From Candidatus Curtissbacteria bacterium (lineage in GTDB: Bacteria; Patescibacteriota; Microgenomatia; Curtissbacterales; GWA2-41-24), in NCBI GenBank assembly GCA_016183325.1, contig JACPEV010000003.1:82000-145999 (forward strand): DNA of 64,000 nucleotides, read 5' to 3'. The notes under the pieces are model-generated. The model did no database searches, was not told the DNA's origin, and worked only from the letters and a program-made list of their open reading frames with translations. Positions 3,442 through 57,103 of the stretch are shown here, piece by piece; position 1 is the stretch's first letter, and each line of letters starts with the position of its first letter. The translations under genes were made by a program, and so were the position numbers.

Positions 3442-4884
3442 ATGAAACGAATTTACATAACCACTGCTATCCCTTACGTTAATGCGGCGCCGCATATTGG
3501 TTTTGCCCTTGAGGCAGTGCAGGCGGATTGCCTGGCGAGATTTTATAGACTTTTGGGATATGACGTCTATTTTGCTTCGGGGACGGATGAAAATTCCCTG
3601 AAAAATGTGCAGGCGGCGGAGGCTGAAGGTTTGCCGACACAAGAATTGGTGGACAAATACGCCAAGCAATTTGAAAACTTAAAAGACGCGCTTAATTTAA
3701 CGTGGAATACTTTCAATAGGACCAGTGCCAAACACCATTTTGATGGCGCACAAAAATTGTGGAATCTTTGTAATAAAGAAGATATCTATAAAAAAAATTA
3801 TCGGGGACTTTATTGTGTTGGGTGTGAAGTCTTTTATGCCCAAGATGAAATTTCTGACGGAAAATGTCCAGACGGGCATACAAACATCGATGAGGTTGAG
3901 GAGGAAAATTACTTTTTTGCTCTCTCCAAATATCAAAGATACTTGGAGACGCTGATTAACACGGATCCTTCGACTTCACTCAGGACAGGTAAATTGCGGA
4001 TTGTACCGAATACGAAAAAAAATGAAGTTTTATCTTTTATTAAACAAGGACTTGAGGATTTTAGTATTTCGAGATCCCGAGAGAGAGCTCGGGGTTGGGG
4101 CGTGCCGGTGCCCGGCGACGAATCTCAGGTAATGTATGTATGGTTCGATGCTCTGACAACTTACTTGACGGCTTTGGGATTTTCGTCAAACGATGAACTT
4201 TATAAACAATATTGGACTAACAATTCCAATCGACTGCATGTTATTGGTAAGGGGATTATCAGGTTTCATGCAGTTTACTGGCCGGCGATGCTGGCATCGG
4301 CAGGGCTTCCCCTTCCCGCGATCGAATTTGTACATGGATATGTGACAGTTGATGGTCAAAAGATTTCTAAATCGCTTGGGAATGTGATCAACCCGTTTGA
4401 TTTAGTTTCTAAATTCGGCGTCGATCCGGTTCGATATTATTTACTTCGGGAAATTCCGGCGTATGGGGACGGGGATTTTTCGATTGCAAGATTTAAGGAT
4501 TTATACAATGGGGAGTTGGCAAATGGGCTTGGGAACTTGGTGGCGCGGGTGGCGCGACTGGCTTCTGATACAAGTCTGAGTTTGCCTGAAAAAAAGAATT
4601 TTAAGTTTAAAAAAACAGTTTCTGATAATTTGAGGATATTTAAATTTGATCAAGCTTTGCTTTCGATATGGGATGATATTTCGCGACTTGATAAAAAGAT
4701 CAATGAGGAAAAACCTTGGGAGCTCGCGGGTAAAAACCTTAAGAAATCGATAACTCCAATTGCCCAAGAGATTCGCGAAATTGCTTTTAACCTTGCGCCG
4801 TTTTTACCGGACACATCGAGGAAAATTCTTGATCAGTTTACGGGGAAAGTTTCGTCCGAAAAGCCTTTATTCCCCCGCATATGA
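3442..4884 (+). CDS. metG: methionyl-tRNA synthetase
   Basis: Class I aaRS motifs PHIGF (HIGH) and KISKS (KMSKS); the N-terminus aligns with MetRS. Confidence 0.9.
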   Translation: MKRIYITTAIPYVNAAPHIGFALEAVQADCLARFYRLLGYDVYFASGTDENSLKNVQAAEAEGLPTQELVDKYAKQFENLKDALNLTWNTFNRTSAKHHFDGAQKLWNLCNKEDIYKKNYRGLYCVGCEVFYAQDEISDGKCPDGHTNIDEVEEENYFFALSKYQRYLETLINTDPSTSLRTGKLRIVPNTKKNEVLSFIKQGLEDFSISRSRERARGWGVPVPGDESQVMYVWFDALTTYLTALGFSSNDELYKQYWTNNSNRLHVIGKGIIRFHAVYWPAMLASAGLPLPAIEFVHGYVTVDGQKISKSLGNVINPFDLVSKFGVDPVRYYLLREIPAYGDGDFSIARFKDLYNGELANGLGNLVARVARLASDTSLSLPEKKNFKFKKTVSDNLRIFKFDQALLSIWDDISRLDKKINEEKPWELAGKNLKKSITPIAQEIREIAFNLAPFLPDTSRKILDQFTGKVSSEKPLFPRI

Positions 4885-5549
4885 AAAAGCAATTTAAGGT
4901 TTTTGCTTGGGATTTCCACGGAACCTTGGAACAAGGGGTTGAAGTAGGATTTTGGCATATTTTGAAGGCTATAGCGAAAAAGCGCGGAATAGCCGAGAAT
5001 TTTAAGTTGTCTGAAGTTAGAAAGCTCTATGGAGTCACGGTTGCCAATTATCTACGGCATTTTTTCCCAGAAAGCAACGAGGCAGAGATTCGTGAAGTGA
5101 TGAAAGACGTGGCAACTATTCAAAATCAATCACATTTAAAAAAATATGTTCGTGCGGCACCTGGAGCAATCGAAGTTTTGGGCAGGATTCGCGCGGCAGG
5201 CCACAAGAATATTGTTCTTTCTAATTCACATCCAGATCACATTAAGCCGCTTATTAAAATTGTTGGCATGGCCGAGTTAATCGATGAGGTTTATGCCATT
5301 GACAGGCACTACACGCACAAGAAATTCGATCCTGTTGTTGAAAAGACAAAAGTTTTAAAGCGAATTAAAAAACAAGACCAGCTCGGTCGCAGTCAGTTAA
5401 TTGCCATCGGTGATCGTGCCAGCGACATAAATGCAGGGATAGCGGCAGGAACGGTGACTTATCAGTTCCTTCGGCGTGGTTTTCCGATTGACGAGACAGA
5501 TGCCGACTATAAAATATATCATTTGAGTGAGATTTTGAGAGAAATTTAA
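4881..5549 (+). CDS. HAD-superfamily hydrolase-like protein
   Basis: AWDFHGTL (degenerate motif I) and IAIGDRASDINAG (motif IV); 4-bp overlap with metG. Confidence 0.55.
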   Translation: MKKQFKVFAWDFHGTLEQGVEVGFWHILKAIAKKRGIAENFKLSEVRKLYGVTVANYLRHFFPESNEAEIREVMKDVATIQNQSHLKKYVRAAPGAIEVLGRIRAAGHKNIVLSNSHPDHIKPLIKIVGMAELIDEVYAIDRHYTHKKFDPVVEKTKVLKRIKKQDQLGRSQLIAIGDRASDINAGIAAGTVTYQFLRRGFPIDETDADYKIYHLSEILREI

Positions 5550-6571
5550 TGTTTGTCGATACCCATGCGCATTTGGATTTCTGTGATGACATTGATGATT
5601 GGATTGAAAGAGCAAAAGAGGCGGGGGTTAGGAAGATTATTAATGTTGGGACTTCTATTGAGGCAAGCAAGAAAAGTGTTGAGATTGCAGAGAAGTATTC
5701 TGAAAATGGATCCCGAATCAAGTTCGGAATGACAAAAGAGGATGACTTTCAGATCTTCGCCTCAGTCGGAATTCATCCTCAAGACGGAAAAGGTGATGTT
5801 AAAAAGTTTGGCTCTTTGCTGCACTGTTTCGAAACGCTGAAGCAAATTGCAGAGTCGTCTAAGAAAGTGGTGGCGGTTGGAGAGACCGGACTCGACTATT
5901 ACTTAAAAACAACTGATCCTTCGACCCATTCGATGAACTCAGGGCAAGCAAACTCAGGACAAACAGCAAGGCAACTGACAACTGACAAGGAAAGGGAATT
6001 TCAAAGAAAACTTTTTACTGAACAAATAAAATTAGCGCGGGAACTAAACTTGCCGATTCTCGTCCACTGCCGTAATGCTTGGGATGAGATTTTCGAGATA
6101 ATTTCAAACGAGCATGATAGTCATCCTGAATTTATTTCAGGAACTAAAAAAAAGATTCCGAAACAAAACCAGATCCCGAAACCCATTCGGGTCGATAAAA
6201 TCAGACAAGTTCGGGATGACATGGTTCGGAATGACAGAGGTGGAGTTCGAGGTTTGTTCCATTCATGGACCGGGGATTGGGAAGCGGCGAAAAAGGCTTT
6301 GGATCTGGGATTTTATATTTCCTTTTCCGGAATTGTGACGTTTAAAAATGCGCCAAAGGTCGCAGAAGTGGCGAAAAAAGTGCCGCTTGATAGAATGTTA
6401 GTTGAGACGGACTCCCCTTTTCTTTCACCGGAACCTTATCGCGGAATGGAAAATGAGCCTAAAAATGTTATAATAACGGCTCAGTTTTTGGCCAAGCTTC
6501 GAGACATTCCCCTTGATACAATAGAGGATGCGACATCGCGGAATACACAAAGGTTGTTTAACATACAATAA
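5549..6571 (+). CDS. tatD: TatD-family metal-dependent DNase/hydrolase with an in-frame low-complexity insertion
   Basis: MFVDTHAHLDF start, HCRNAW, ETDSPFLSPEPYRG; the insertion around 5918-5960 carries the GC-rich repeat words. Confidence 0.8.
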   Translation: MFVDTHAHLDFCDDIDDWIERAKEAGVRKIINVGTSIEASKKSVEIAEKYSENGSRIKFGMTKEDDFQIFASVGIHPQDGKGDVKKFGSLLHCFETLKQIAESSKKVVAVGETGLDYYLKTTDPSTHSMNSGQANSGQTARQLTTDKEREFQRKLFTEQIKLARELNLPILVHCRNAWDEIFEIISNEHDSHPEFISGTKKKIPKQNQIPKPIRVDKIRQVRDDMVRNDRGGVRGLFHSWTGDWEAAKKALDLGFYISFSGIVTFKNAPKVAEVAKKVPLDRMLVETDSPFLSPEPYRGMENEPKNVIITAQFLAKLRDIPLDTIEDATSRNTQRLFNIQ

Positions 6572-6834
6572 ATCCGAAATACGCAGCACGAAATTAGTGC
6601 ATAAAGAAATTAGTTACTGGAAATTAGAAAATTGTAATGGAAAGTAGAAAATAGAAAATGGAGAATAAATTATAACTATTTTCCAATCTCAATTTTCCAT
6701 TTCCAATTTTGCGAAGCAAAACTTCGCTTTCCAGTTTCTAGAAACTATTTTCTAGAATACAGAATTGTTTCGTATTTCGGCCGGGGACTTTTTCCTGGAG
6801 TTTAATACTTTTTCCCGTCTGGGGATCGTTTTGG

Positions 6835-8404: not shown

Positions 8405-8821
8405 TTATTTGTCAATGCCGAGGCGCTTGTAGCCGTTTTTGGCAAAAGTTTCGTCAAAGCCAAATATTTCGTTTGTCTCGAACTCATCGGCAAAGGCCAT
8501 GACTAGACAATCTGTAAAACTGACAGACTTTGGTTGTCTTTGGAATTTCTCTAATGTCTTTTTGCGAATTTGCAATGTTGCCTCCATAATGGATAGCTCT
8601 TTTGATTCTAAAAACTTCCAGCCAGTTTCGACTGATAATTCATGGTTAACTTTTTTCCCTAAGACATTTAGAGTTTCTGCAAATATTTCGCCAGGAATAA
8701 TTAATGCACGGTTTGTTTTTTTAATGTGGATGCTTAAACTAACTGCAAGATTATGGTCGTGGTCGACAGTTGATGCTTGTGCCACAAGCGCACTCGAGTC
8801 TGCAATTACTGGAGTTTTCAT
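8405..8821 (-). CDS. vapC: PIN-domain toxin VapC
   Basis: PIN signature with the acidic C-terminal GFDETF; paired with a small upstream ORF. Confidence 0.8.
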   Translation of the reverse strand: MKTPVIADSSALVAQASTVDHDHNLAVSLSIHIKKTNRALIIPGEIFAETLNVLGKKVNHELSVETGWKFLESKELSIMEATLQIRKKTLEKFQRQPKSVSFTDCLVMAFADEFETNEIFGFDETFAKNGYKRLGIDK

Positions 8822-9078
8822 TCCTCGTAGAGGTACTTATCGATATTTCTGGAAAGATCCTTTGGAGCTTTGGTTTTATATTTTTCCCCTAACTTTGCAA
8901 TCTCTAGTAAAACGTCGCCTGCATTTTTGGGTGTTTTCTTGTCGAGACTGTCTTCCAGCGCCTCACGGATTACTGCCGCTTTGGTCTTTTTCTCTCTTTT
9001 GGAGATTAAGTCTATATGCTGATAGAGACCTTTAGGTAAGTAAATTTGAGTGCGGATCATATGTCTGATGTATAACAT
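8818..9078 (-). CDS. vapB: ribbon-helix-helix antitoxin (VapB-like)
   Basis: IYLPKGLYQHIDL… is an RHH-like N-terminus; 4-bp overlap with vapC. Confidence 0.6.
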   Translation of the reverse strand: MLYIRHMIRTQIYLPKGLYQHIDLISKREKKTKAAVIREALEDSLDKKTPKNAGDVLLEIAKLGEKYKTKAPKDLSRNIDKYLYEE

Positions 9079-9130: not shown

Positions 9131-10687
9131 ATGTTTCCCCTAACAGAGAATTATTTGACGCGTGGTTTTTGGGGTGATGAGGCGTGGACTTCGCTGATTT
9201 CGCAACTTCCGTATTTGCAAATGCTAAAAACCACGGCAGCGGATTTTCATCCCCCCGGATATTACACGGTGGTTGAGCTTTGGTATAAGGTTTTCCCGCC
9301 AACGGAAGTTTCGACAAGAATCGTTTCCATTGTTTTTTACTTTTTGACGATTTTTTTGGTTTATAAGCTTGCATCTCTTCTTATTAATTCCACCTCCGAG
9401 GAGCCCCCTTCGACTGCTTCGACTACGCTCAGTACGGGTTTGCTCAGGGCAAGCGAGCTCACCTCGGAGGTGAATAGGGATAAAGTTGAAGGGTCCAAGC
9501 TCGCACCTTGGGAGGTGATTAGTAAAAAAAGATTCTGGGGACTCTTGAGCGCAATAGTTGTCGCTGTTAATCCAATCTTTTTTACTTATGCGTTTGAAGC
9601 AAGGAACTATACGATGTTTGCATTTGCGTCTGTCGGATCTATTTATTTTTTGATTGGAATTTTGAACAAATCCACCTCCGAGGTGAAAAGTACTCCCACC
9701 TCGCAGGTGACTGGAGGTAAAGTTGAGGAGTCAAAGCTCGCACCTTGGGAGGTAAGTAGGGGTGGTGTTACTAATGTGATCTTTTTTATTCTTTTTTCAA
9801 CCTTAGGCATTTATACCCATTACTACATGTTTTTGACGCTTTTTGCACAGGGATTTTATATTGTACTTTTTCATCGAAAAATTCTTTTGAAAATGATCGG
9901 TATTTATGCAATCATCGGACTTTTATATTTGCCTTGGATGCCTTTTTTGTTGGGACAGCTAAAATCCGTCGGAAGCGGCTATTGGATCGGCCCAATAGAT
10001 GGGAAAACGCACTGGGAGGCAATTTTGCGCATACTTTCTGGAGAATTTGAAAATGGTTTTCGACCATTTTTATTGACACTTTCAATCGGGTTGATACTCA
10101 CAGGATTTTTTCAACATTTAAAAAAGAGGATATTGGCAAAAGCCTACATTTTGATTTGGTTTTGGGCGGTAGTGCCATTTATTCTGGCAACGTTACCAGG
10201 ACTTTCCATTAACGGTTTTAAATTACCCTTTCGACCAATTTTTTTCTGGAGATATTTGATCCCGGCTTCGGTACCCTTGTCGCTGATTATCTTGCAACCA
10301 CTGAGAACACTGAAATTGCAACCACTGAAAATACTGACATTAATCACTGTGATAGCACTGAGTTTGACTATAGATTATCTGACATTGACCCGCTATCCTT
10401 ACACTTTTCGCCAAGTTTATGAACAAAAAGTTTTGCCTGAAATTGCCTCTCGCGATAAAATAGTAACCGTTCTGCCTTCTTTCGCCGAAGTCCTTTACTA
10501 TCGAAATCGTTTTAGACTTGATAATGAACTAATAATTTTGCCAGAGGGAATAGTGCAATTTTCAGGGAAAAGTTTACTAGACGCATATGTGCAAAATGGA
10601 GTTGTAAAAATCGATGACAATCCGGCCGGAAGATATTTTGAGTTGAGACCAGGGCCGAGTATCGAAATGATAGAAAATAGTTTATAG
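9131..10687 (+). CDS. GT-C glycosyltransferase (GT39/ArnT/PMT-like) with two in-frame repeat-element insertions
   Basis: GDEAW DE-motif near the N-terminus and a polytopic membrane body; insertions at 9391-9472 and 9673-9709. Confidence 0.65.
   Translation: MFPLTENYLTRGFWGDEAWTSLISQLPYLQMLKTTAADFHPPGYYTVVELWYKVFPPTEVSTRIVSIVFYFLTIFLVYKLASLLINSTSEEPPSTASTTLSTGLLRASELTSEVNRDKVEGSKLAPWEVISKKRFWGLLSAIVVAVNPIFFTYAFEARNYTMFAFASVGSIYFLIGILNKSTSEVKSTPTSQVTGGKVEESKLAPWEVSRGGVTNVIFFILFSTLGIYTHYYMFLTLFAQGFYIVLFHRKILLKMIGIYAIIGLLYLPWMPFLLGQLKSVGSGYWIGPIDGKTHWEAILRILSGEFENGFRPFLLTLSIGLILTGFFQHLKKRILAKAYILIWFWAVVPFILATLPGLSINGFKLPFRPIFFWRYLIPASVPLSLIILQPLRTLKLQPLKILTLITVIALSLTIDYLTLTRYPYTFRQVYEQKVLPEIASRDKIVTVLPSFAEVLYYRNRFRLDNELIILPEGIVQFSGKSLLDAYVQNGVVKIDDNPAGRYFELRPGPSIEMIENSL
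9391..9472. repeat. 82-bp palindrome-terminated GC-rich element (CACCTCCGAGG…CCTCGGAGGTG), in-frame inside the GT-C gene
   Basis: Exact reverse complement of 37933-38014. Confidence 0.9.
9673..9709. repeat. 37-bp short derivative of the same element (cacctccgaggtgaaaagtactcccacctcgcaggtg)
   Basis: Near-identical to 37587-37623. Confidence 0.85.
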
Positions 10688-10800
10688 AAAGTGGAAAGAA
10701 GTAATGGACATTAGATAATAGAAATTGGACAATTTTCCAGTTTCCATTTTCCATAACCAATCTCTAGTTTCTAAAAACTAATTTCTTTTATGATTTACGG

Positions 10801-12270
10801 TTGTCTGATATGAAGAAGCATTTTTTGGTATTTGCCTTAATTCTATTTCTAATTTTCATCTTCCGTCTTCCATCACTCTTCGAACCTTTCTGGTACGGGG
10901 ATGAGGGCATTTTTGCGGCGGTTGCCAATAATTTGAATCAGGGAGGAGTGCTCTATCGTGACTCTTGGGATAACAAGCCGCCAATGATTTATTTGACTTA
11001 TGCTGCCATTTTTAAGTTTTTCGGAGTTTCTATGTTCTGGTTGAGACTTGCGGCGGCGATCGTCGTTCTGACAACAGCAGCAGTCATCTATGAAATTGGC
11101 CAAAAGATGCTTAGTAAAAAGAGGGCACTTTTGGCAACTTTCACTTTTGGATTTTTGACCTCGCTAAGGCTTATAGAAGGAAACTTGGCTTTAACAGAAA
11201 TCTTGATGATTCTGCCTATAACACTGGCGATCTTGATGGCAATTCTTCGTAAATTCGATTATGTTTCGCTTTTTTTCGCAGGCTTTCTTTTTGCGGTTGC
11301 TTCCCTCTATAAACAAGTGGGCGCTCTGGAAACAGGTGCACTGGGAATATATATCTTTTTGATCAGTAAAAATTTTGGCCAGTTTTTCACCAAAGGACTT
11401 GTTTTAACTGCTGGATTCGCAGTTCCATTTTTAGCATTTATTGCCTACTTTGCACCAAAAAATTTAGTCGGGGAATATATTTTCGCAGCTTATACTTACT
11501 ATCGAATTTATTTTGGTGAGAGTCCCAAATATACTTTTTTGATTAACCTATTAAAGTTTTTACCAATTATGGCAGCTGTGGCATGGGGCGCCTATCAAAA
11601 GGCTAGAAAAAAAGTTCAGCTTTTAAATTTATTATTACTTTGGGCCGCTTTTTCGGCTTTAGGCAGTTTTTTTTCGGGAAGAACTTACGGTCATTATCTG
11701 ATTCAAACGATCCCAGCAATTTCACTGATTTTGGCTTCGATTAATCTAAAATTCAAATTCAAGAAAAATGTTTTGATTTTTGGTCTTTTCTTTTTAGCAC
11801 CTCTTTTGATTTTGACCAAAGTTCTCTTTTTCGATTTTTTGACTTCGGGACCGTTAAATCAGTTCGGATACTGGGGTAACTTTTTGGCGTACAGTTTGGG
11901 CAAAAAAGGTCTTGATAACTATAATGACTATTTTGACAAAAATGTAAACTCAATTATGGCACTTGCCGACTTCTTTGCCACAAGGGGTGATGTGCAACCA
12001 ACTGCCTATATATGGGGAGACTACCCATGGCTTTATGCAATTTCTGATTTAAAAAATCCCGTCCGATATGTTACATCGTTTCACGTTTTCGGAGTTGGTG
12101 GCGGGCGCAGTGAAGTGGCAAAAGCTCTCACCTTGCGTCCTCCAAAATATATTATTAAACCTGCCAGTTCTATTGGGTATTTTAATGAGCTTGAAAGACT
12201 TTTAGTCGTAAAATATAGATTGTTTGCCAAGATAGAGTCAGCTGACGTCTATATAAAAGAACCTGAATAG
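10801..12270 (+). CDS. GT39/ArnT-family glycosyltransferase (dolichyl/undecaprenyl-phosphate-sugar dependent)
   Basis: FWYGDEGIFAA DE-motif after TM1, polytopic membrane protein, 489 aa. Confidence 0.7.
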   Translation: MSDMKKHFLVFALILFLIFIFRLPSLFEPFWYGDEGIFAAVANNLNQGGVLYRDSWDNKPPMIYLTYAAIFKFFGVSMFWLRLAAAIVVLTTAAVIYEIGQKMLSKKRALLATFTFGFLTSLRLIEGNLALTEILMILPITLAILMAILRKFDYVSLFFAGFLFAVASLYKQVGALETGALGIYIFLISKNFGQFFTKGLVLTAGFAVPFLAFIAYFAPKNLVGEYIFAAYTYYRIYFGESPKYTFLINLLKFLPIMAAVAWGAYQKARKKVQLLNLLLLWAAFSALGSFFSGRTYGHYLIQTIPAISLILASINLKFKFKKNVLIFGLFFLAPLLILTKVLFFDFLTSGPLNQFGYWGNFLAYSLGKKGLDNYNDYFDKNVNSIMALADFFATRGDVQPTAYIWGDYPWLYAISDLKNPVRYVTSFHVFGVGGGRSEVAKALTLRPPKYIIKPASSIGYFNELERLLVVKYRLFAKIESADVYIKEPE

Positions 12271-15766: not shown

Positions 15767-15873
15767 TTTAAATTTCTAATTACTCTAATTTCTAATTTCT
15801 AAATAATATCCCAATTAATAAATTTCTAATTTTTAGGTCAATTAGAATAATTAGGTTAATTAGGTCAATTCTA

Positions 15874-22707: not shown

Positions 22708-23562
22708 CTAAAGTTTTTTGGTGAATTGGGTTTGGATCCAGCCTTGTTTGCCAGCCTCGCCAGCTCGGCTAGGCGGGCCGTCGAATTTGATTTTGATCCA
22801 ATCGCCGGTTTCCTGGATGATTTCCAGTTGATCGCCAGTTCGGACTCTGCCGACTTCGGTGGAAGTTGTTTGAGGTTCCTGGCGAACCCTTAAAAACCCT
22901 TGTGGTGCTTTTACGACCTCAATTTTTAAGATCTGAGGTGCGCTGACTTGCGGTTTATTAATGCCTTTGGCAATTTCAGAAGCCAGGCTAACGTCGGCAA
23001 CAAGCTGATAACGGCTGGCGGTTTTAATGGCAAATTCCCTCTGCACATAGCCTGTTTGAGAAAGAAGAACTTTGTGCTCACCGTCCTCGATATCGGTAAT
23101 CAGAAGAGGGGTTTTACCAATGTACTTGCCATCAATGGTAACGTCTGTCTCTGTAGGCTGAGAGGAAATAAAAAGACCTTTTTCCTGAGGTCTCAGCCAT
23201 AAGTTCTCTCCTGATTGGGCAAGAAAGTTGTTGGCAAGTTCGCGATTGACGACGGTAAGGGTACCGGAAGTTAAGGTTATTTTGTCCACAAAGCTTGCCT
23301 CAGACGCAGTGATTTTTAAAAGGTACTCACCGGCCTTGAGCTGTTCTGAAAAATAGGGAGTTTTTCCTAAGTGTTTACCGTCTAAAAACACTGAGGCTTC
23401 CGGGGTCGAAGTGACTTGGAGTGCAGCTGGTTTTTGGGTGCCGATGAGAGTGCAGCCGGAAAGAAGCAGAACAATTGACAATTGACAAGTGACAAAAAGT
23501 AAGCTTTTAAGAAACAATTTTCCATTTTCCCTGCGGGCCAGAGGCCCCGGGCCGGAGGCCAT
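22708..23562 (-). CDS. lipoprotein with PEGA-domain repeats and a C-terminal SH3b-like domain
   Basis: Lipobox LLSGC after RR/K; repeats V(F/T)(L/I)DGK(H/Y)(L/I)GKTP. Confidence 0.6.
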   Translation of the reverse strand: MASGPGPLARRENGKLFLKSLLFVTCQLSIVLLLSGCTLIGTQKPAALQVTSTPEASVFLDGKHLGKTPYFSEQLKAGEYLLKITASEASFVDKITLTSGTLTVVNRELANNFLAQSGENLWLRPQEKGLFISSQPTETDVTIDGKYIGKTPLLITDIEDGEHKVLLSQTGYVQREFAIKTASRYQLVADVSLASEIAKGINKPQVSAPQILKIEVVKAPQGFLRVRQEPQTTSTEVGRVRTGDQLEIIQETGDWIKIKFDGPPSRAGEAGKQGWIQTQFTKKL

Positions 23563-23806
23563 TTTCCATTTTCCATTTAGGGTGGGCATTGGGATAAAGT
23601 TAACACTTCGACTTCGCTCAGTGCAAGCTATGGTGATGGCAAAACGATAATCTAGGATTATTATGGGATTTGACTTTTAGGGTGAAATCTGCTAGAATTT
23701 GCCTTCGTAAAATTCCCACTATGGGTCGGCTTAGACGACCCATGATTCTCAGAAAGTTCTATTGTGGGATTTTACGTGGGCAAGTCAAACTTGCCTTTGA
23801 AAAAAC

Positions 23807-25828: not shown

Positions 25829-25962
25829 TACAGATTAAAAATAGAGATTAGTTAGTGGAAATTGGTAATGGAAATTAGAGATTAGAAATAAGAAAACTAT
25901 TTTCTAATTTCCATTTTCCATAACTATTTTCTACTTTCTAGTAACTAATTTCTATTATCAAT

Positions 25963-27930
<1,968 letters not shown>

Positions 27931-34801: not shown

Positions 34802-35278
34802 TTATTGTTGAAATGTAATTAAAATGCTGTCTTCATCCTCAATTTTTTTATCCAACAGATCAGGTTCTTCCCGGCCATTTAAATAAAACTTTAGAGAGCT
34901 GCTGGAACCATTGCAAAAAGTTTCTCCGTCACCGGTTGTAAGACAATCTTTGGTTAACTTCATCGGAAGAGTTTTAAAAAAATCGTCCCAGGTGATTCCA
35001 TCTTTTTTGACATGAACTATTGTTGGACTATCAGCCGAAAGATAAACATCGGGTGATCTTTGGTGATATTTGGGACTTTTAAAATTTCTGATTATTCCAT
35101 TTGTGTTGATTTGAAACGAGGCCTCAATATTGACCTCTTGAATTTCGGGCGATGAAGAAGGCGAAAATGCAAGAATTGGAGATGATGATGGTGCTAACGG
35201 ATTGGGAGTTGTTCTTAAGAAAAGTATTGAGCCGACAGAAAGAAGTATTATTGCAATTGTAAAAAAAATAGCTCGCAC
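34802..35278 (-). CDS. secreted hypothetical protein
   Basis: Signal peptide. Confidence 0.45.
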   Translation of the reverse strand: MRAIFFTIAIILLSVGSILFLRTTPNPLAPSSSPILAFSPSSSPEIQEVNIEASFQINTNGIIRNFKSPKYHQRSPDVYLSADSPTIVHVKKDGITWDDFFKTLPMKLTKDCLTTGDGETFCNGSSSSLKFYLNGREEPDLLDKKIEDEDSILITFQQ

Positions 35279-35348
35279 TTTTTAATTCTACAGTAGTAAA
35301 GGGAGATAGCAATAGACTCTAATATTGTCTTTGATGTAAAATACACAT

Positions 35349-36083
35349 ATGGCTCAAAGTTTCAAATTTCAAAAGGGCACCGCGTGGCTCTGGCCACTTG
35401 TCGTTTTGATAATTACATTCGGCGCTTTTTACTTTAAACCCTGGCAGACAAAACCGACAGAAACCATCTCTGTTTCCGCAACTGGCAAAGCCCAAGTTAC
35501 TCCAAATGTTGCCACAATTACCGCAACCATTGAATCTAAAAATCCAAATCTAGAACAAGCCAGAAAAGAAAACGAGCTAAAGGTCAGCATGCTAATCTCC
35601 GCTCTCAAAAATCTCGGCGTTGAGGAAAAAGACATCAAAACTCAGCATATTTCAGGCGGCCCCGGCTATGAAATTATGATCTATCCCCCAAGAAAACCAA
35701 CCACCAACCAATTCACCACAAGTCTTGAAGTCAAAATCAGAAACTTTGAAAATACCGATGAGATTATTGCAGCAATGACCCAAAATGGAGCCACCAATCT
35801 TTATGGTCCCAATTTAACTGTTGATGAAGCACTTCAGGAAGAAGGCAAATCCAAGGCTCGCGAAAACGCTGTCAATGAAGCTCGCAAAAAGGGTGAACAA
35901 CTGGCCAAACTTTCCGGCAGGAAACTTGGTAAAGCGGTCAAAATCTCAGAGCAAGGTGATTATGGTTTCCCTATCCCCATCTACGCCCAATCTGAAGCTG
36001 ATCTTCGCCAAAAAGCCAACCAAATCCAACCCGGTCAAAACGATGTCACCATTACCCTCCAAGTCGACTTCGAACTCAAGTAG
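35349..36083 (+). CDS. SIMPL-domain (DUF541/YggE-like) protein
   Basis: Length and sequence pattern. Confidence 0.7.
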   Translation: MAQSFKFQKGTAWLWPLVVLIITFGAFYFKPWQTKPTETISVSATGKAQVTPNVATITATIESKNPNLEQARKENELKVSMLISALKNLGVEEKDIKTQHISGGPGYEIMIYPPRKPTTNQFTTSLEVKIRNFENTDEIIAAMTQNGATNLYGPNLTVDEALQEEGKSKARENAVNEARKKGEQLAKLSGRKLGKAVKISEQGDYGFPIPIYAQSEADLRQKANQIQPGQNDVTITLQVDFELK

Positions 36084-36169
36084 CACTAATTTTCAATTTT
36101 TAATTTAAAATTTTTATTGAATTTTTATTTTTTTTAAAATTTTAAATATTTTAAATTTGATTTCAAATT

Positions 36170-38794
36170 TCAAATTGTAAATTTCAAATTCCTGCCAAAT
36201 ATCACCAGACCTATGAATCCCAAACTTATTAAGCTTATCAACAACCCTGCTTTAAAAGTATCCGGATCATAATAAAACCTCACCTCATGCTCTCCGCGAG
36301 TTAGAGGTACCGCCCGAAACGTATAATTTGCCCGCAAAATCTCAGTCTCTTCTCCATCAACTTCCGCCTTCCAGCCAAGGTAATAATTATCTGAAATAAA
36401 AAGCAACTTTGGCTGTAAAGATCTAGTTTTAACAATCACCTCTTGTGATTTATAACTAACAACTTCGACCTCACCTTCTCCAAATTGCGGCGAAATCGGC
36501 GAAGGCTTTTCCAAAATCAAAGAATTGCGAAAATCAAAATCGCTGGATAATAATTTTTGAAAGATCAACTTCCTCCTTCGCCTGTCAATCTCACGAGTCG
36601 TCAAATTAGTCACATCAGCTAAGTTAGGAGGTCCCTCATAACTAGAGGCTAAAAAAATCCTCGCCAGCACCTGGGGATTTTCAAAAACTCCATAGTCTTT
36701 GTGTTCAAATGCTTTCTTAAAATTATTTGCCTCCATCACTTCAAAATCACCGCTTTTGGCAACAACATATTTGATCCCGAGCATATTAAGGAGTCTTCTC
36801 CTGTTTTGATTCTCAATCAGAAATTTCGCATCTCCTACTGCCCCAAGTCCCGCGTCCGATCTCAGATAAAAATCTTCTATGTTGTTACCCTGCATCGCGT
36901 AGGTAAACTCTCCGTAAGAACGGTTATTCAAAGAATCATAACCTTCTGGCCAGAAAAGAGAATATTGGCTAGCAAAATTATTGCCCAAAGCCGCCTCACC
37001 CACCCCCCAGGACCTAGAATACCCCTGGTTATTTTTAAGAAAATCTAAAATCGGAGTTGGCGGAAAAACATACTTTGCTTCCGAAAACGAGAAATATTTC
37101 TGAGAAAAATAAAAAATATGCAAAAAGGCTATCCCCATGATCAAAACTGCAGCTATTTCCCTTCTTAACCAGTGACCAACAGTGCTTGCAATAATCATCA
37201 AAACAGTGGTTGCAAAAACCGCAACCGGCACGACCAAATTCCTAAGCGAAATCACAGCCGTCTCCTTGGGACTAAATTTCAGAAACTCAATATAGGGGAA
37301 ATTGAAAAATCTAACCAAAAGCAGATAAAAAGCTATCAATAAATACGAAAGGCCGAAGGCCAAAATTATTTTAAAAATTTTTCTGTCTCTCCGCAGCAAC
37401 CACTGATCAAACCCAATCGCTCCTAAAACAGCAATACAAAAGGCTGGAATAAACAATATCCTGTTGGCAATAGAAGTTGATAAAAACGGAACCGGCAGTG
37501 AAAGAAAAAGTTTTGACGTTGGCAAGTCTAAGGTAGTTGAAAGTGCAACCATCCCAAAAATCGCCAAAAATATTACAAGTTTATTATCACCTCCGAGGTG
37601 AAAAGTTCTCACACCTCGGAGGTGTAAACCTGTATAGAAAACAGCAAACGTCGCAAAGATCACTGCAGCAACGCCGACAAACATAATCCCTTCGTAATAT
37701 TGCGCTGCCCCACCTCTGAAAAAATTATGAGTAGCCGGATGACCAAAAATGTCTGGCGCCAAAAAGGTCACTATTGATTGAATTGGCAGCAAAAAGCTAA
37801 ATAAAGTCTCGGAAAGAGCAATCGTCGATCTCCCCGAATTAAAATAAAGCTCGGCAGAAGGCAAAAGCTGCACCGCCGCAATTCCCGCTCCTATCAATAT
37901 CCCAAGCCCGGCTTGGAATAGCTTTTGTATCACACCTCCGAGGTGAGCTCGCTTGCCCTGAGCAAACCCGTACTGAGCGTAGTCGAAGCAGTCGAAGGGG
38001 GCTCCTCGGAGGTGGACTATCTGCCAAATTCTAAAAATTAAATAAGCGGCACTGAAAATCAATAGATAGATTGTAGTCTGCATATAGCCCCCTAAGAGCG
38101 AAGCACCGACCCCAAGAGAGATTAAAGCTAAATACTGCCTCCTGTCTGTAGCTAAAAACTTATCAATCGCCCACAAAATTAACGGTAACCAGACAACCGA
38201 ATGAGGCGACATCACTACTTCCTCTCCCCACGTCAAAATAAAAGGGCTAAATCCAAAAGTTATAGCTCCAAAAATGCTTGCCAGCATCGATAGTTTCCCG
38301 TCACTTTTCTTCTTAATCGTCATTCTGGCTTGTCCAGAATCTTTCTTCATTGCGGATTCTGGAGTCGTTTCACTCCCCAGAATGACGTTATTCGATAGGT
38401 TTCTAAGAAACAAATACATAAAAAACGCCCCCAGAATTGTCGGCGTAATTCGCAGTAGATGCCAAAACTCAACCTGCGACATAAAAAATCCCAAAATATT
38501 CAAAGGATAAAAAACTGCAGTCTGAAAATCGGCCATATGAGGGTGTCCCGAAAAGGCAAAGGGATTCCAAAATGGAACGCTACCTGATCGAAAAGCATCA
38601 AGGGTTACCTTGTAAAATGGCAAGTAAATCCGAAGTTGATCCCAACCGGTATTTTTGTAGGGCAGATTCTCTCCATATGGGGCATAAAAACTCACCAACA
38701 AATGTCCATTCAAATTAACCTTCGAAAGAAATATCGGCCAAAAAAGAATCAGAGAAAGAAATGTCAATAAAAGGAGGATTTTGAGCTTCACCAC
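36170..38794 (-). CDS. YfhO-family membrane glycosyltransferase with two in-frame repeat-element insertions
   Basis: N-terminal YfhO region (…FWNPFAFSGHPHMADFQTAVFYP…); insertions at 37587-37623 and 37933-38014. Confidence 0.75.
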   Translation of the reverse strand: MVKLKILLLLTFLSLILFWPIFLSKVNLNGHLLVSFYAPYGENLPYKNTGWDQLRIYLPFYKVTLDAFRSGSVPFWNPFAFSGHPHMADFQTAVFYPLNILGFFMSQVEFWHLLRITPTILGAFFMYLFLRNLSNNVILGSETTPESAMKKDSGQARMTIKKKSDGKLSMLASIFGAITFGFSPFILTWGEEVVMSPHSVVWLPLILWAIDKFLATDRRQYLALISLGVGASLLGGYMQTTIYLLIFSAAYLIFRIWQIVHLRGAPFDCFDYAQYGFAQGKRAHLGGVIQKLFQAGLGILIGAGIAAVQLLPSAELYFNSGRSTIALSETLFSFLLPIQSIVTFLAPDIFGHPATHNFFRGGAAQYYEGIMFVGVAAVIFATFAVFYTGLHLRGVRTFHLGGDNKLVIFLAIFGMVALSTTLDLPTSKLFLSLPVPFLSTSIANRILFIPAFCIAVLGAIGFDQWLLRRDRKIFKIILAFGLSYLLIAFYLLLVRFFNFPYIEFLKFSPKETAVISLRNLVVPVAVFATTVLMIIASTVGHWLRREIAAVLIMGIAFLHIFYFSQKYFSFSEAKYVFPPTPILDFLKNNQGYSRSWGVGEAALGNNFASQYSLFWPEGYDSLNNRSYGEFTYAMQGNNIEDFYLRSDAGLGAVGDAKFLIENQNRRRLLNMLGIKYVVAKSGDFEVMEANNFKKAFEHKDYGVFENPQVLARIFLASSYEGPPNLADVTNLTTREIDRRRRKLIFQKLLSSDFDFRNSLILEKPSPISPQFGEGEVEVVSYKSQEVIVKTRSLQPKLLFISDNYYLGWKAEVDGEETEILRANYTFRAVPLTRGEHEVRFYYDPDTFKAGLLISLISLGFIGLVIFGRNLKFTI
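37587..37623. repeat. 37-bp short palindromic element (copy of 9673-9709)
   Basis: cacctccgaggtgaaaagttctcacacctcggaggtg. Confidence 0.85.
37933..38014. repeat. 82-bp element, exact reverse complement of 9391-9472
   Basis: Direct comparison. Confidence 0.9.
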
Positions 38795-39394: not shown

Positions 39395-39695
39395 ATTTTA
39401 GCACATGCTGCCTAAAAGAGCGTATAAATAAACGGAGCAACGCCGCTAGCTTGGGCAAAAATTAAAAGCAGGCCAAACACTAAAAGCACCACCACAAATG
39501 GGATCAAAAACCACAGCTTCGCTTTCCACAAAAATTCCAAGAGCTCTCCAGCTTCTCCGCTTCTTGAAAAAAATGATTTAAGAAATCTCATTTTTAAATT
39601 GATCTAATTAACCTAATTGCTCTAATTGGTCTAAATAATTTAGAAATTTGAAAATTTTGAAATTAATTAGAAATTAGAAATTAAAAATTAGAAAT

Positions 39696-41483
39696 TTATT
39701 TTATATCTTCTTTCAAAATAATATATCTCTCCAGCGCCAAAATATCCAGTCCGCTCTTACTAAAAGTGTTAAAAGCATCTTCTGGCGAATTAACAATCGG
39801 CTCTCCTTTCAAGTTAAAAGAAGTATTTAAAAGAACATAAACTCCCGTTTTATCTCCAAATTTCTTCACCAGATTGTAATATCGGGCATTCTGTGTCTCA
39901 GCTATTATCTGCAGTCTCCCCGACCCATCCACGTGAGTCACCGCCGGAATCACTTTGCGCATCCCGCGTCTAACTGGAAAAACTCCCAACATAAAATTAG
40001 TCAGATACTGGTGATCAAGCTCATCAAGCTCAAAGTAATCTTTGGCTCTTTGGGCCAAAACCACCGGAGCAAAAGGTCGATAAGGCTCTCTGAATTTAAT
40101 CTTCGTATTGACCACCTCTTTCATCTCTTCCCGGCGCGGATCAGCAAGTATCGACCTTGCTCCAAGTGCCCTCGGGCCCCACTCTGCCCGCGAGTGGAAA
40201 AAACCAATAACTTTTCCATCAGCTATCTCACCAGACAAATAATCGACCAACTTCCCTTCAGATACTATTTTTTGATATTTAATCTTTTTACTCTTTAAGA
40301 ATTTCTCGATCTCGTGCTCACTAAATTCCGCGCCAAAATAACAATTATCCTGAACAAATTGTCTTTTCTTTCTAAGAACCGCATGATAGACGTAAAGAGC
40401 TGCTCCCATCGCCCCGCCATCATCTCCTGCTGCTGGCTGTACAAAAATTCTCTTGAACGGTCCTTTTTGCGCCAATAGTCCATTCGCTACACTGTTTAAA
40501 CCGACTCCACCGGCAATACATAAATTTTCTTCGCCTGTTTTTAGGTGGGCATAGTTTGCCAAATCCAAAATAACCTCCTCGGTAAGTTTCTGGATTGAAG
40601 CGGCAATATCTGCATATTTTTGATTAAGAGCGCACAGATCTTCGTAATTCTTTGGCTTTTCCCCAAAATAAGACGGATATCCTGAAGATCTTGTAAAAAA
40701 ATGCAGATCTCGCGGTCTTGGCTCTCCAAAAAGTTCCACAAATTTCGAACCAAATGCCCTGTCCGACGACTTGTGATATGTAAAATATTCCATCCTCAGC
40801 GCATAAGAACCGTCACCATATCTCTTAACCAGCTTTCTTGCACGATCCAAGTATTTCGGAAGTCCATAGGGAGCCATACCCATCACTTTATATTCACCAT
40901 CATTGACTTCAAAACCTAAAAAGGCCGTAAACACTGAATACAAAAGCCCCAAGCTATGTGGAAACTTAATCTCCGATAATATTTCCAAATCTAAACCCTT
41001 GCCCAACCCAATTGTCGTTGTCGTCCACTCTCCCACACCGTCAAATGTCAAAACGCAAGCACTACCAAAACCGGATGCATAAAAAGCTGATGCTGCGTGC
41101 GAAACATGATGGGCAGCAAAGAGGATTTTGTCACGTTCGACGGCAAGTTTATCGGAAATTATAGAACGGACCCAGAGTTTGTCGGAAAGCCAAGTAACCA
41201 TTGATTTTGCAAAAAACCGATGTGCTTGCGGCCAACTTGCTAAAGAAGATATTAAAATTCTGGTAAATTTCCAAAAAGGTTTCTCATAAAAAACTACAAA
41301 ATCAAGATCAGTTGCAGTTATTCCTGCCCGAAGAAGACAAAAGTCAATCGCCATTTTGGGGAATTCGCTGTCATGTTTTTTGCGACTAAATCTTTCCTCG
41401 GCCGACGCCGCCACCACCCTGCCATCTTTTATTAAACATGCCGCCGATTCGTGGTAGAAACAAGAGATACCTAGAATATACAT
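39696..41483 (-). CDS. NodU/CmcH-family carbamoyltransferase
   Basis: MYILGIS…HESAA start, C-terminal LLNTSFNLKGEPIV. Confidence 0.85.
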   Translation of the reverse strand: MYILGISCFYHESAACLIKDGRVVAASAEERFSRKKHDSEFPKMAIDFCLLRAGITATDLDFVVFYEKPFWKFTRILISSLASWPQAHRFFAKSMVTWLSDKLWVRSIISDKLAVERDKILFAAHHVSHAASAFYASGFGSACVLTFDGVGEWTTTTIGLGKGLDLEILSEIKFPHSLGLLYSVFTAFLGFEVNDGEYKVMGMAPYGLPKYLDRARKLVKRYGDGSYALRMEYFTYHKSSDRAFGSKFVELFGEPRPRDLHFFTRSSGYPSYFGEKPKNYEDLCALNQKYADIAASIQKLTEEVILDLANYAHLKTGEENLCIAGGVGLNSVANGLLAQKGPFKRIFVQPAAGDDGGAMGAALYVYHAVLRKKRQFVQDNCYFGAEFSEHEIEKFLKSKKIKYQKIVSEGKLVDYLSGEIADGKVIGFFHSRAEWGPRALGARSILADPRREEMKEVVNTKIKFREPYRPFAPVVLAQRAKDYFELDELDHQYLTNFMLGVFPVRRGMRKVIPAVTHVDGSGRLQIIAETQNARYYNLVKKFGDKTGVYVLLNTSFNLKGEPIVNSPEDAFNTFSKSGLDILALERYIILKEDIK

Positions 41484-41489
41484 CAGGAA

Positions 41490-41524
41490 AATTGAAAATT
41501 GAAAATTGAAAATTGAAAATTCAT
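41490..41524. repeat. (GAAAATT)x5 tandem repeat
   Basis: Read directly. Confidence 0.9.
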
Positions 41525-50480: not shown

Positions 50481-50507
50481 CAAGTTTACCCTGAGTTTAT
50501 CGAAGGG

Positions 50508-50580
50508 TGCGCCCGACAGGACTCGAACCTGTAACCGTTAGCTCCGCAAGCTAATGTTCTATCCAGTTGAACTACGGGCG
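50508..50580 (-). tRNA. tRNA-Arg (anticodon GCG as read)
   Basis: Acceptor GCGCCCG/CGGGCGC, anticodon stem TTAGC/GCTAA, loop TTGCGGA, T-loop TTCGAGT. Confidence 0.55.
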
Positions 50581-53403: not shown

Positions 53404-53571
53404 AACTTTTTGCAAGAAAGTAAAATAAAGCATATTTAGGTTCCAAAACCATTTATAGTTATAGAAAAAGCAAAATCTGAAGCTGATAAAATTTTGTCCG
53501 AGTTAGAACTCGATGAATATGCGCACTTGACGGCCCAATTGGCCTCTATTTTCTCCCAAAATCTCACTCTG

Positions 53572-53656
53572 CGGAGAGGGTGGGATTCGAACCCACGGTA
53601 GCTTGCGCTACATTCGTTTTCAGGACGAACGCACTAGCCCACTATGCGACCTCTCC
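53572..53656 (-). tRNA. tRNA-Ser (anticodon TGA), type II
   Basis: Acceptor GGAGAGG/CCTCTCC, anticodon loop CCTGAAA (C33 is unusual), T-loop TTCGAAT. Confidence 0.6.
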
Positions 53657-53661
53657 AAGTG

Positions 53662-53745
53662 CGGAGGGTGTGGGAGTCGAACCCACTCTGGACTTTCGCC
53701 CAGCAAGTTTAGCAAACTTGTGCCTTACCGTCCGGCCCACCCTCC
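53662..53745 (-). tRNA. tRNA-Ser (anticodon GCT), type II
   Basis: Acceptor GGAGGGT/ACCCTCC, anticodon loop TTGCTAA, T-loop TTCGACT. Confidence 0.65.
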
Positions 53746-54731
53746 CAAAATGTATGATTTTTTAAAAAGAAACTCTTTTTAAAATTCCCTGTTCCAATTT
53801 CTTTAAGATAGCTCTTAACTTCGCTTTTATTATATAACCATACTTTATATCTACCATCATTCTTGGGCTTGTAACCTAGGCCCCTTAATCCTTCATGAAC
53901 AAAATCCAGAAGCGGCAAAGATCGATTCGTAAAAACAATCTTTGGATATGAATATAGCTTCCCATTTACTTTATAGCGATGCATCGCAAAACAACCGTCT
54001 GTATCAACTAAACCGCGAATGCATGCTTTAATATATTCAGGCTTCAACAAAATCCATTCTGGAACTCCAACTTGTAAAAGTACTTTATTACCTCTTCTGA
54101 GACCTTTTTGCTCTAGGTATTTTATCAGATTAATACTTGAAACCATAACTCTTACGACTTTCTGAGTTTTATGTCTAAATAGACTTGGTTTTAAACCAAA
54201 AAGTTTCTCTATTAAATCGCGCACATAAAAAACATACTCCTCATCAACTTCACTGTTCAGGTAGATAACACATTGAAAATTACTTAATCCTCCATCACCA
54301 AGTAAAATTCCAATAAATTCTGCTAAATTCTCGTTTTCCTCGGGAATATTTATGTTTTTCGCCAAATTTCCGAGAACTCTTCTTTTTTTAATTCCATTTA
54401 AACCGCCCCTTCTACGTCCTTCAGGAGTGCCCAAATCCCCATGCAATTTAAAACGAACCATAGCACCTTTGCGACATATCTCTAGTTTTCTAGCAAACCA
54501 GCGGTCAATTAAGATTTTCTCCTGTTCTGGAAAGAGAACTTCATATTTTTTTGCAAGCAACTTCACAGCTTCAGAAGGTGGGCACAACTTTTCCCTCCTC
54601 CAATCAAAAAGGGTTCTTCGATGCACACCCACTTCGTCTGCAAGCTGTTTCGGAGAAAAACCACTATTCCTAACTACTCGCTCAAAAAAGTCTCTCTGCT
54701 CTCCAGTTCTAAATAAAACTCTCTGTTTCAC
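53709..54731 (-). mobile_element. free-standing double-motif LAGLIDADG homing endonuclease with an N-terminal HTH; its 3' end runs into tRNA-Ser(GCT)
   Basis: Two LAGLIDADG motifs (LAEFIGILLGDGGL and IRGLVDTDGCF); the last ~12 codons are encoded by the 5' half of the tRNA gene. Confidence 0.75.
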
Positions 54732-56371: not shown

Positions 56372-57103
56372 TCATCCAAGCGCGACTGCCAATCCCCAAA
56401 CATCTTTTGCCCCGACTCGTTTTAGAACTTTACAGCATTCACTCATAGTAGCCCCGCTTGTATAGACATCATCCACTAACAAAATATTCTTGTCTCTAAT
56501 ATCAAAATTTAGCGGTTTACCATGAACCTGCTCGCCCTGAGCTTGTCGAATGGGCCGAAGCGAAAAAGCGCTTCTAACATTTTCTTTTCTTTTATCAGAC
56601 TTAAGTTCAACTTGAGGTCTTGTATACCTGTTTCTAACAAGCAAATCACTGTAGGGGTGCTTAAATCTTCTTGCCAGATCCTGACCAATCAGTTCTGCTT
56701 GGTTAAAACCTCGCCATCTTTTTCTCTTAATGTGAAGTGGTACCGGGACCAAAGTTGCATCGGGGGGAAAATCAAATTTCCATAAATTGCCAGCTACGAC
56801 ACTAACCAAAATCTTGCCAATATCATAAACCCATTTATATTTAATTTTCTGCACTGCTTTGGCTATTGCACCTCGATACCGACAGACTACAATCAATCCA
56901 TCCAATTGATACCGGCCACCACACCCTGGGTGCGTCCTCCCACCGATTGCTTGCCTCTGGCAAATAGGGCAAAGTGGCTTCTTTATAAATTCGATCTCAG
57001 AAAAACATTTTTTACAAATATACGCACCGAGGTTTCCGCAGGAAACACAGCGCTTGGGGAAAAGAAAATCAAGCAAAAAGTTCATAGTTGATTCCACTAC
57101 CAA
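56372..57103 (-). CDS. comFC: ComF-family phosphoribosyltransferase-domain protein
   Basis: Two CxxC pairs at the N-terminus and a PRTase motif LLVDDVYTSGAT. Confidence 0.75.
   Translation of the reverse strand: MVVESTMNFLLDFLFPKRCVSCGNLGAYICKKCFSEIEFIKKPLCPICQRQAIGGRTHPGCGGRYQLDGLIVVCRYRGAIAKAVQKIKYKWVYDIGKILVSVVAGNLWKFDFPPDATLVPVPLHIKRKRWRGFNQAELIGQDLARRFKHPYSDLLVRNRYTRPQVELKSDKRKENVRSAFSLRPIRQAQGEQVHGKPLNFDIRDKNILLVDDVYTSGATMSECCKVLKRVGAKDVWGLAVALG

Follow-up and report, generated by a model that had tools for sequence, protein, structure and literature searches.

How an identical DNA segment came to lie, in frame, within two different membrane-protein genes is the question raised by a 64,000-nucleotide stretch from Candidatus Curtissbacteria bacterium (assembly GCA_016183325.1, contig JACPEV010000003.1, positions 82,000 to 145,999), here called the window. 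The segment, named element A in the following, is found at 9389-9472 on the plus strand, within a GT39-like gene, and at 37933-38016 on the minus strand, within a YfhO gene. An earlier note on this DNA had reported an exact reverse-complement pair of 82 bp in these genes; by the repeat finder, the identity extends to 84/84 nt, one copy being the exact reverse complement of the other. An 83-mer starting at 9390 matches only 9390-9472 (+) and 37933-38015 (-) in the 64 kb of the window, with 0 mismatches, and 0 chance matches are expected from 100 shuffles. Element A is one member of a family of short hairpins, most of which lie within genes. The features of the two host genes are listed below.

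9131..10687, plus strand: host gene 1, GT39-like / PMT_2 (GT-C fold) membrane glycosyltransferase; intact open reading frame (ORF), 518 aa
9389..9472, plus strand: element A, copy 1, with a length of 84 nt (28 codons) and the peptide STSEEPPSTASTTLSTGLLRASELTSEV; about 75% of orthologues lack it
9391..9403, plus strand: left arm of element A, CACCTCCGAGGAG, pairing with 9460-9472 in the DNA fold
9404..9459, plus strand: loop of element A, 56 nt, with nested CCCTTCGAC...GCTCAGGGCAAGC core and 24-nt expansion TGCTTCGACTACGCTCAGTACGGG
9460..9472, plus strand: right arm of element A, CACCTCGGAGGTG, a perfect palindrome
9473..9517, plus strand: unit C, 45 nt, read as NRDKVEGSKLAPWEV; a 31-nt spacer, then a degenerate third arm CACCTTGGGAGGTG (9504-9517)
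9671..9709, plus strand: element B in GT39, a 37-nt hairpin plus 5' TC, read as STSEVKSTPTSQV; arms 9673-9685 and 9697-9709, 11-nt loop
9710..9754, plus strand: unit C', in which unit C occurs a second time; peptide TGGKVEESKLAPWEV
36170..38794, minus strand: host gene 2, YfhO-family (GT-C) membrane protein; intact ORF, 874 aa; PF09586, 100% NCBI match
37588..37624, no strand assigned: element B in YfhO, perfect 13-bp stem, 11-nt loop; minus-strand reading HLRGVRTFHLGG
37933..38016, minus strand: element A, copy 2, read as HLRGAPFDCFDYAQYGFAQGKRAHLGG; a short loop is present here in most YfhO orthologues

Both copies of element A keep the reading frame of their host, as had been claimed: the ORFs are uninterrupted, 28 codons are added to each, and the peptides originally quoted are those listed above. 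The copies had also been said to lie in opposite orientations, which is true on the chromosome and not relative to the genes; since the hosts are encoded on opposite strands, element A is read in the same orientation by each of them. The two reading frames are one base apart, and for this reason the peptides differ (STSEEPP...TSEV in GT39 vs HLRGAPF...HLGG in YfhO). None of the six frames of the arm has a stop codon, and the whole of element A can be read through in 5 of 6.

Element A is bounded by two 13-nt arms of the form CACCTC-N-GAGGTG, which are reverse complements of each other, each being nearly palindromic in itself. Its termini had been described as palindromic; the right arm is so, perfectly, around its centre base, while the left one carries one mismatch. 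Nor is the segment a simple unit: it is a hairpin with a 13-bp stem, whose loop contains a nested second repeat and a 24-nt genome-specific expansion. The 13-mer arm occurs 8 times in the window, vs 0.09 expected, always within the GT39 and YfhO genes, and the eight arms make four hairpins, element A and the shorter element B being present once in each gene. The two B copies (9673-9709 and 37588-37624) are 92% identical (repeat D20 of the repeat finder), and the B loop in YfhO has, relative to the gene, the opposite orientation from B in GT39. Each GT39 hairpin directly precedes a 45-nt unit C; unit C forms a direct repeat with 9697-9759 (D13, 84%), and no further occurrence of it was found in about 0.9 Mb of collected loci. 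The z-scores of the stems, folded as single-stranded DNA (ssDNA), span -2.6 to -7.2: the predicted energies are -16 kcal/mol for B in YfhO (z = -7.2), -10.4 kcal/mol for B in GT39 (z = -4.9) and -18.6 kcal/mol for element A (z = -2.6).

When element A was aligned with its shorter relatives (L001, L127, L129, L098), the 24-nt expansion was found only in the two window copies. L001, an intergenic relative from Curtissbacteria RIFCSPLOWO2_12_FULL_41_16, is also the single copy found for the right half of A in the contigs of GTDB-representative genomes. The 100% identity, together with the shared derived expansion, indicates that the two A copies are recent sisters, made within this genome. The core nested in A is related to a repeat, CACGTTCACCCTGAGTTTGTCGAAGGGT (reverse complement ..CCCTTCGAC..CTCAGGGTGAAC), present at 2389-2416, 50481-50508 and 56527-56554, and a shortened, tandem-duplicated form of it (CTTCAGGGTGAAC x2) lies at 4966-5000 of L131, within the loop of the hairpin found at GT39 loop 1. 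Given these nested and duplicated repeats, it seems that this second family uses hairpin loops as landing sites.

The alignment of orthologues agrees with the earlier statement that the segment is an insertion. Host protein 1 is a 100% match to the NCBI entry 'glycosyltransferase family 39 protein [Candidatus Curtissbacteria bacterium]', encoded on a contig of 165,637 bp, as is host protein 2; the fold of host protein 1 matches ArnT and Pmt4, and PF13231 is found in GT39 orthologues. The modal length of the latter (n = 120) is 437 aa, vs 518 aa in the window, and about 75% of them show, at the positions of A+C and B+C' in the window protein, short loops (AS-EIKGK-LFG; EKFTKRRAL). Most YfhO orthologues similarly have a short loop at the element A site. 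Synteny is conserved at these loci, so that the compared GT39 and YfhO genes are true orthologues. In the AlphaFold model of GT39 (predicted template-modelling score 0.68), residues 89-125, corresponding to element A and the adjoining unit C, and residues 187-210 are coil between transmembrane helices; the predicted local distance difference test falls below 50 at residues 89-120, 191-194 and 197-209. A surface or periplasmic loop had been proposed as the site of insertion: the model gives disordered loops between transmembrane helices, which are probably cytoplasmic, judging from their K/R-rich ends and the GT-C topology. Two further PMT_2 (GT-C) genes of the window, at 10801-12270 (+) and 54838-56358 (+), contain no hairpin arms; hence, GT-C genes as such are not what the elements target.

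The hairpin family in Microgenomates genes

Metagenomes were scanned for two exact arms spaced 5-35 nt apart, and at least 120 loci were found to carry paired arms. The family counts reported here (n=89, n=131 and n=286) rest on the matches listed, gathered with exact arms. Arms are almost never solo, 274 out of 286 being paired. The canonical unit consists of the arms CACCTC-C-GAGGTG ... CACCTC-G-GAGGTG around a loop of 8 to 56 nt. Length classes of 34, 37, 40, 43 and 49 nt are distinguished, each with its own loop motifs, and the loops are unrelated across classes; the 34-49-nt classes dominate. The flanks of 131 elements show a weak preference only, with T at -2, G avoided at -1 and C avoided at +1.

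Hairpin-type elements are located within stop-free ORFs of at least 150 aa in 70 out of 89 cases (79%), vs 82% of the locus bases lying under such ORFs, which means that genes are not avoided; some family copies are intergenic. For 50 of the 70 in-ORF elements the pattern length equals 1 modulo 3, so that both arms are read in one frame. The use of frames in the 70 elements is uneven (HL[RG]G 34, TSEV 29, PPR 7; p = 1.4e-4), and this bias is a sign that selection acts on the translated product. The host proteins comprise 114 Pfam families across 63 hosts and have diverse housekeeping functions; UvrD, SecA, topoisomerase I (TopA), the gamma subunit of ATP synthase and the Leu-, Met- and Phe-tRNA synthetases are among them. 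Membrane proteins are not enriched (7/73 vs 98/647). The named host organisms are Curtissbacteria, Woesebacteria and Shapirobacteria, all Microgenomates. The UvrD-like host of a 49-nt hairpin in L121 (9292-12321, minus strand) also carries, judging from its translation, an apparent intein-like insertion (CLPPGTEVV ... IIVHN).

These data uphold, at the level of function, the comparison, made in the earlier note, with Rickettsia palindromic elements (RPEs), since a repeated palindromic family is found overwhelmingly in frame within unrelated genes. A search of protein representatives with a 39-aa YfhO segment returned just 3 unrelated repeat proteins. By an Rfam scan of the window, at the gathering threshold, only a transfer-messenger RNA (tmRNA) and six tRNAs were obtained, no family covering the hairpins. 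No description of in-frame hairpin repeats in the candidate phyla radiation (CPR) was found by literature searches, and the family in Microgenomates genes is apparently undescribed so far.

Stem pairing and different loops at the same site

The pairing of the stems is maintained throughout the family. The centre bases of the two arms are complementary in 116 of 131 elements. Where arms are non-canonical, Watson-Crick pairing is observed at 91/125 inner positions, vs 64.5 +/- 4.5 with shuffled partners, and 0/2000 shuffles reach the observed value. A set of 16 distinct arm pairs, mostly found by protein orthology and not via the arms, was analyzed: 90.4% of the cells are paired, vs 81.2% in shuffles, and double-sided changes number 20 vs 6.4, neither figure being reached in any of 500 shuffles. 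Pairing drops to 39-54% when the partner is slid. No excess of G.U pairs is present on the sense strand.

The YfhO proteins of the window and of the closest orthologue, L127, show 66% amino-acid identity, and 49% identity at third codon positions. The two hairpin sites that they share agree at 47 out of 52 arm positions; among the 5 differences, 4 are of the compensatory kind. In two pairs of metagenome orthologues the spacers are kept as well, 15/17 positions being identical between L002 and L016, and 10/10 between L064 and L108, while the flanks reach only 59-78%. The element had been called selfish; stems which change in a compensatory manner, and which are far more conserved than synonymous sites, could also mean constraint.

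At orthologous sites, the same arms enclose different loops. The YfhO loop that contains the long A in the window contains a 34-nt hairpin in L127; at YfhO loop 2, exactly one codon position is taken up by B in the window, by an A-like element in L127; a third YfhO loop has B-like and A-like elements in P0168 and P0132. The GT39 genes of L131 and L132 have common arms at both loops, and differ in the loop sequences. The pattern recurs in other proteins (L054/L116 and L071/L121). In about 9 of 24 aligned GT39 orthologues a STSxES..TxEV hairpin is found at loop 1, with varying nested cores. In L131, the hairpin at loop 1 has outer half-arms of the canonical and inner half-arms of a variant type, a mixture resembling a conversion tract that spans the loop. 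Since the sites are occupied in such orthologues, both sites in the window most likely already held hairpins before the long form of A arrived. Two separate insertions into naive loops fit these data less well than copying between occupied sites.

In a few elements both arms share changes that are not compensatory. This is the case for YfhO in L129 and L130 (about 10580-10637 of L130), where the arms CACCACCGGGGAG .. CACCACGGGGGTA are read as HHRG..HHGG, and for P0023, where parallel changes are read as TSDE..TSDV. The arms seem to undergo concerted evolution, both as direct and as inverted repeats.

Origin of the repeats and competing explanations

The hairpins are probably non-autonomous, RPE-like repeats, translated where they are tolerated and copied between sites through their arms. 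A copy would survive where its total length keeps the frame and where a hydrophilic peptide (HLRG..HLGG or TSEV..TSEV) meets a permissive loop, and the surviving element would be translated as a disordered insertion; its status would be selfish or neutral. Element A is a composite, made of the arms, the nested second repeat CCCTTCGAC..GCTCAGGGCAAGC and the 24-nt expansion. Because orthologues have, at these loops, other hairpins whose arms are the same, we infer that the identical long copies were produced by arm-guided replacement at a resident hairpin, rather than by random insertion into an empty loop. The route could be gene conversion or template switching via the 13-nt arms, or the action of an arm-specific recombinase or transposase. 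Stem upkeep may be due to selection, to hairpin-directed repair or to repeated overwriting. A bolder proposal, possible although doubtful, is that a cassette exchange operating in Microgenomates uses the 13-nt arms for recombination: loops would be swapped between stable paired sites, kept by selection or by hairpin-directed repair, so that short disordered loops of housekeeping proteins are continually rewritten; or else that the stems function as nucleic-acid structures which purifying selection maintains in coding sequence throughout the group.

Several points weigh against arm-mediated copying of an RPE-like repeat. No transposase was identified by a Pfam scan of the 30 longest among 71 candidate ORFs of the window, and the 131 elements show no target-site duplication (TSD), only the weak flank preference described above. 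A length of 13 nt is short for homologous recombination. The compensatory conservation of the arms could reflect a selected function, and not selfish persistence, and the parallel non-compensatory changes in both arms (L129, L130; P0023) fit no model considered here. Copies in the source genome were counted within the 64-kb window only, the metagenome set was picked by exact arms, and the translation of the insert is deduced from its open frame.

Several known systems resemble the hairpins in part. RPEs (Ogata et al. 2000) are about 150 bp long and encode, in one frame, a conserved peptide specific to the family (PMC10969869). They are in-frame palindromic repeats in numerous genes, unrelated to each other and often essential, of a bacterium with a small genome, with an extra peptide compatible with the fold and no known transposase (PMC10969869), much as described here. 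Unlike them, the Microgenomates units are of 34-84 nt and use three frames (HLRG.., TSEV.., PPR..); their arms alone are conserved, their loops are exchangeable and their stems compensatory. The different length and phylum (Microgenomates/CPR) make homology unlikely. Repetitive extragenic palindromes (REPs) and bacterial interspersed mosaic elements (BIMEs) are short (20-40 nt) GC-rich extragenic hairpins with a GTAG or CGTC tag, associated with RAYT transposases (PMC3733652). A short palindrome, conserved stems, variable loops, the lack of TSDs and a high copy number are common to both, whereas the Microgenomates hairpins lie mostly in ORFs and start with CACC, and no RAYT was found in the scanned ORFs of the window. 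Bacterial MITEs (miniature transposable elements of the inverted-repeat type), such as ERIC, BOX, Correia and Nezha, are usually longer than 100 bp and mainly intergenic, with TSDs and a recognisable parent insertion sequence (IS) (PMC10969869, PMC2229807). They are likewise non-autonomous, with terminal inverted repeats (here the 13-nt arms) and occasional in-frame fusions; for the Microgenomates hairpins a size above 100 bp, an intergenic bias, TSDs and a parent IS, the latter sought in the 30 scanned ORFs of the window, were not found. The hairpin repeat is therefore not a member of the RPE, REP or classical MITE families, from which it differs in size, frame, tag, location and TSD. As to intragenic invertons, a loop of 8-23 nt leaves too little length for recombinase synapsis. 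Invertons consist of inverted repeats around a segment present in both orientations within a population (PMC10028968). In the mitochondrial genes of Nematomorpha, coding palindromes of up to 284 bp are described (PMC6649704); there, perfect inverted repeats are embedded in protein genes and translated with them, as here, but they are long and mitochondrial, and do not form a dispersed family with a shared arm.

Among the alternatives, a structure beneficial to the host deserves most attention, although it appears rather improbable. The hairpins would be RNA or ssDNA structures under purifying selection, acting on translation speed, on mRNA stability or processing, or as the site of a dimeric factor, and not parasites. 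The compensatory changes of the stems would be expected, as well as their conservation, far above that of synonymous sites at orthologous positions, and that of the spacers (15/17 and 10/10, with flanks at 59-78%); the arm, moreover, joins an anti-Shine-Dalgarno (CACCTCC) to a Shine-Dalgarno (SD) sequence (GGAGGTG). The hairpin is, however, absent at these sites from most orthologues, and hence dispensable; hosts and positions are unrelated, without enrichment of membrane proteins; variant arms (CACCCCNGGGGTG) have no likeness to SD, a signal rarely used in the genome (4/49); no tolerance of G.U pairs is seen on the sense strand, and no Rfam family corresponds. Identical copies at non-homologous sites, in addition, denote copying, not independent selection. 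A further alternative is a classical MITE, a deletion derivative of an IS moved in trans by a transposase which binds the 13-bp terminal inverted repeats, and inserted at random with TSD; the small size, the many copies at unrelated sites and the intergenic location of some of them agree with this. Yet it is unlikely, because TSDs are missing in the 131 elements and the flanks of the identical copies differ (TC..AA vs TC..TG), units are as short as 34 nt, and loops are non-homologous between classes despite identical arms. Compensatory changes from one end to the other are not expected of protein-bound inverted repeats, different element classes recur at the same orthologous codon, and no transposase was found among the 30 scanned ORFs of the window.

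No more credible than a MITE is a REP-like ssDNA hairpin, mobilised by a RAYT or by a Y1 transposase of the IS200/IS605 type. Such a mechanism agrees with the size of the hairpins (34-49 nt), with conserved stems next to variable loops and with the lack of TSDs, and the kept pairing would suit an enzyme recognising folded ssDNA; but the arms start with CACC, the GTAG/CGTC 5' tag by which REP superfamilies are defined (PMC3733652) being absent. Furthermore, 79% of the copies are intragenic, against the extragenic location of REPs, no Y1 transposase occurs in the 30 scanned ORFs of the window, and no conserved tetranucleotide adjoins the element. Skipping of the segment by programmed translational bypassing, or its removal from the mRNA, is very improbable. 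GC-rich bypass elements of yeast mitochondria are an analogue, and GC-rich hairpins within AT-rich genes, essential ones included, might call for such a process; genic elements are nevertheless stop-free and keep the frame well above chance (50/70 in one length class) in continuous ORFs, 5 of 6 frames are open in element A, and the preference for the two more hydrophilic readings implies selection on a translated product. It is hardly conceivable, finally, that the copies are an assembly artefact, or native protein sequence alike by chance. The source is a metagenome-assembled genome, and repeats can mislead assemblers, but the host ORFs are intact on either side of the copies, with unrelated flanks, and related elements occur in at least 120 independent assemblies; the shared DNA is no protein motif, since its reading frame differs from one gene to the other, and most orthologues do not have the insert.

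Other candidates were discarded. A general role as SD pause sites between transmembrane helices is not upheld, in view of the lack of enrichment of membrane hosts (7/73 vs 98/647), of the SD use of 4/49 and of the variant arms CACCCCNGGGGTG. As to a phage vector, viral contigs gave 5 loci, all of them iteron-like direct repeats (T..T or A..A centres), and not the hairpin element. A diversity-generating retroelement does not agree with copies that are 100% identical, and no reverse transcriptase is seen nearby. CRISPR, integron attC site, intein and uptake sequence were rejected on the grounds of inverted, not direct, arms, in-frame genic location, unsuitable size, and the restriction of 8 arms to 2 genes in 64 kb.

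The hairpin family is of interest in several respects. The genomes of CPR/Patescibacteria are tiny and gene-dense, yet their proteins often exceed the orthologues in length, and the family is one concrete source of the extra length, occupying genes at the rate of random placement, including those for aminoacyl-tRNA synthetases, SecA, topoisomerase and ATP synthase. It provides, beside the Rickettsia RPEs, a second, independent system for the study of how selfish DNA colonises coding sequence and seeds protein loops, and the compensatory stems and the same-site/different-loop pattern make the mechanism testable in existing groundwater meta-omics data. The inserts also have practical effects: they break Pfam matches, the annotation being empty for the longest GT39 orthologues, fragment assemblies, and inflate the apparent protein novelty of CPR.

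Other features of the window

Other families of GC-rich, in-frame mini-inserts are present in the same genome, in TatD (5549-6571), in MetRS (3442-4884), in YfhO (38294-38392) and at 60702-60795. TatD is 340 aa long, vs 265 aa in the syntenic orthologue L131, and has three inserts (ENGSRIKFGMTK; DPSTHSMNSGQANSGQTAR; HPEFISGTKKKIPKQ..VRDDMVRNDR). The corresponding peptides are ..DSGQARMT.. in YfhO, DPSTSLRTGKL in MetRS and PFDSAQAFGSEVFDREAQTESAQARRG in a PF06983 protein.

AT-rich repeats of the type GGAAATTAGAAA / TTTCCATTTTCCA lie between genes as long, imperfect inverted repeats, which could be promoter or terminator regions; they were detected by the repeat finder as D4, D6, D10 and I2-I10, at the following positions.

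6603-6754: AT-rich intergenic repeat
10671-10791: AT-rich intergenic repeat
15777-15870: AT-rich intergenic repeat
25838-25962: AT-rich intergenic repeat
36088-36151: AT-rich intergenic repeat
39597-39696: AT-rich intergenic repeat
41488-41521: AT-rich intergenic repeat

A repeat of about 380 bp is found twice (100-476 and 1374-1817), with a third, partial copy at 2705-2803, and overlaps ORFs without a Pfam match; it includes stretches of 141 nt that are identical, palindromes within the repeat and, at 181-250 = 1455-1524, a GC-rich block. Tandem 8-nt units (GGTTATCA / GGTATTCA) occupy 27845-27905, directly upstream of the GroEL gene (26211-27836, minus strand), and a GC-rich palindrome, CCCTGCGGGCCAGAGGCCCCGGGCCGGAGGCC, lies within TTTTCCATTTTCC repeats at 23514-23577, at the start of a PEGA/SH3 gene region.

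Between the GT2 and GT39 genes, a PIN/RHH-like toxin-antitoxin pair (8405-9078, minus strand) is present in L134 and absent from the syntenic L131. A free-standing ORF with helix-turn-helix and LAGLIDADG_3 domains (53712-54731, minus strand) abuts, and slightly overlaps, a tRNA-Ser pair at 53571-53745. The tmRNA gene is located at 57134-57539 on the minus strand (Rfam RF00023, 106.5 bits), and is not reported by ARAGORN. The cumulative GC skew peaks at about 35000-36500, where its sign turns from positive to negative, a point at which replication may end or begin; the orientation of both host genes is that of the G-rich strand in their half.

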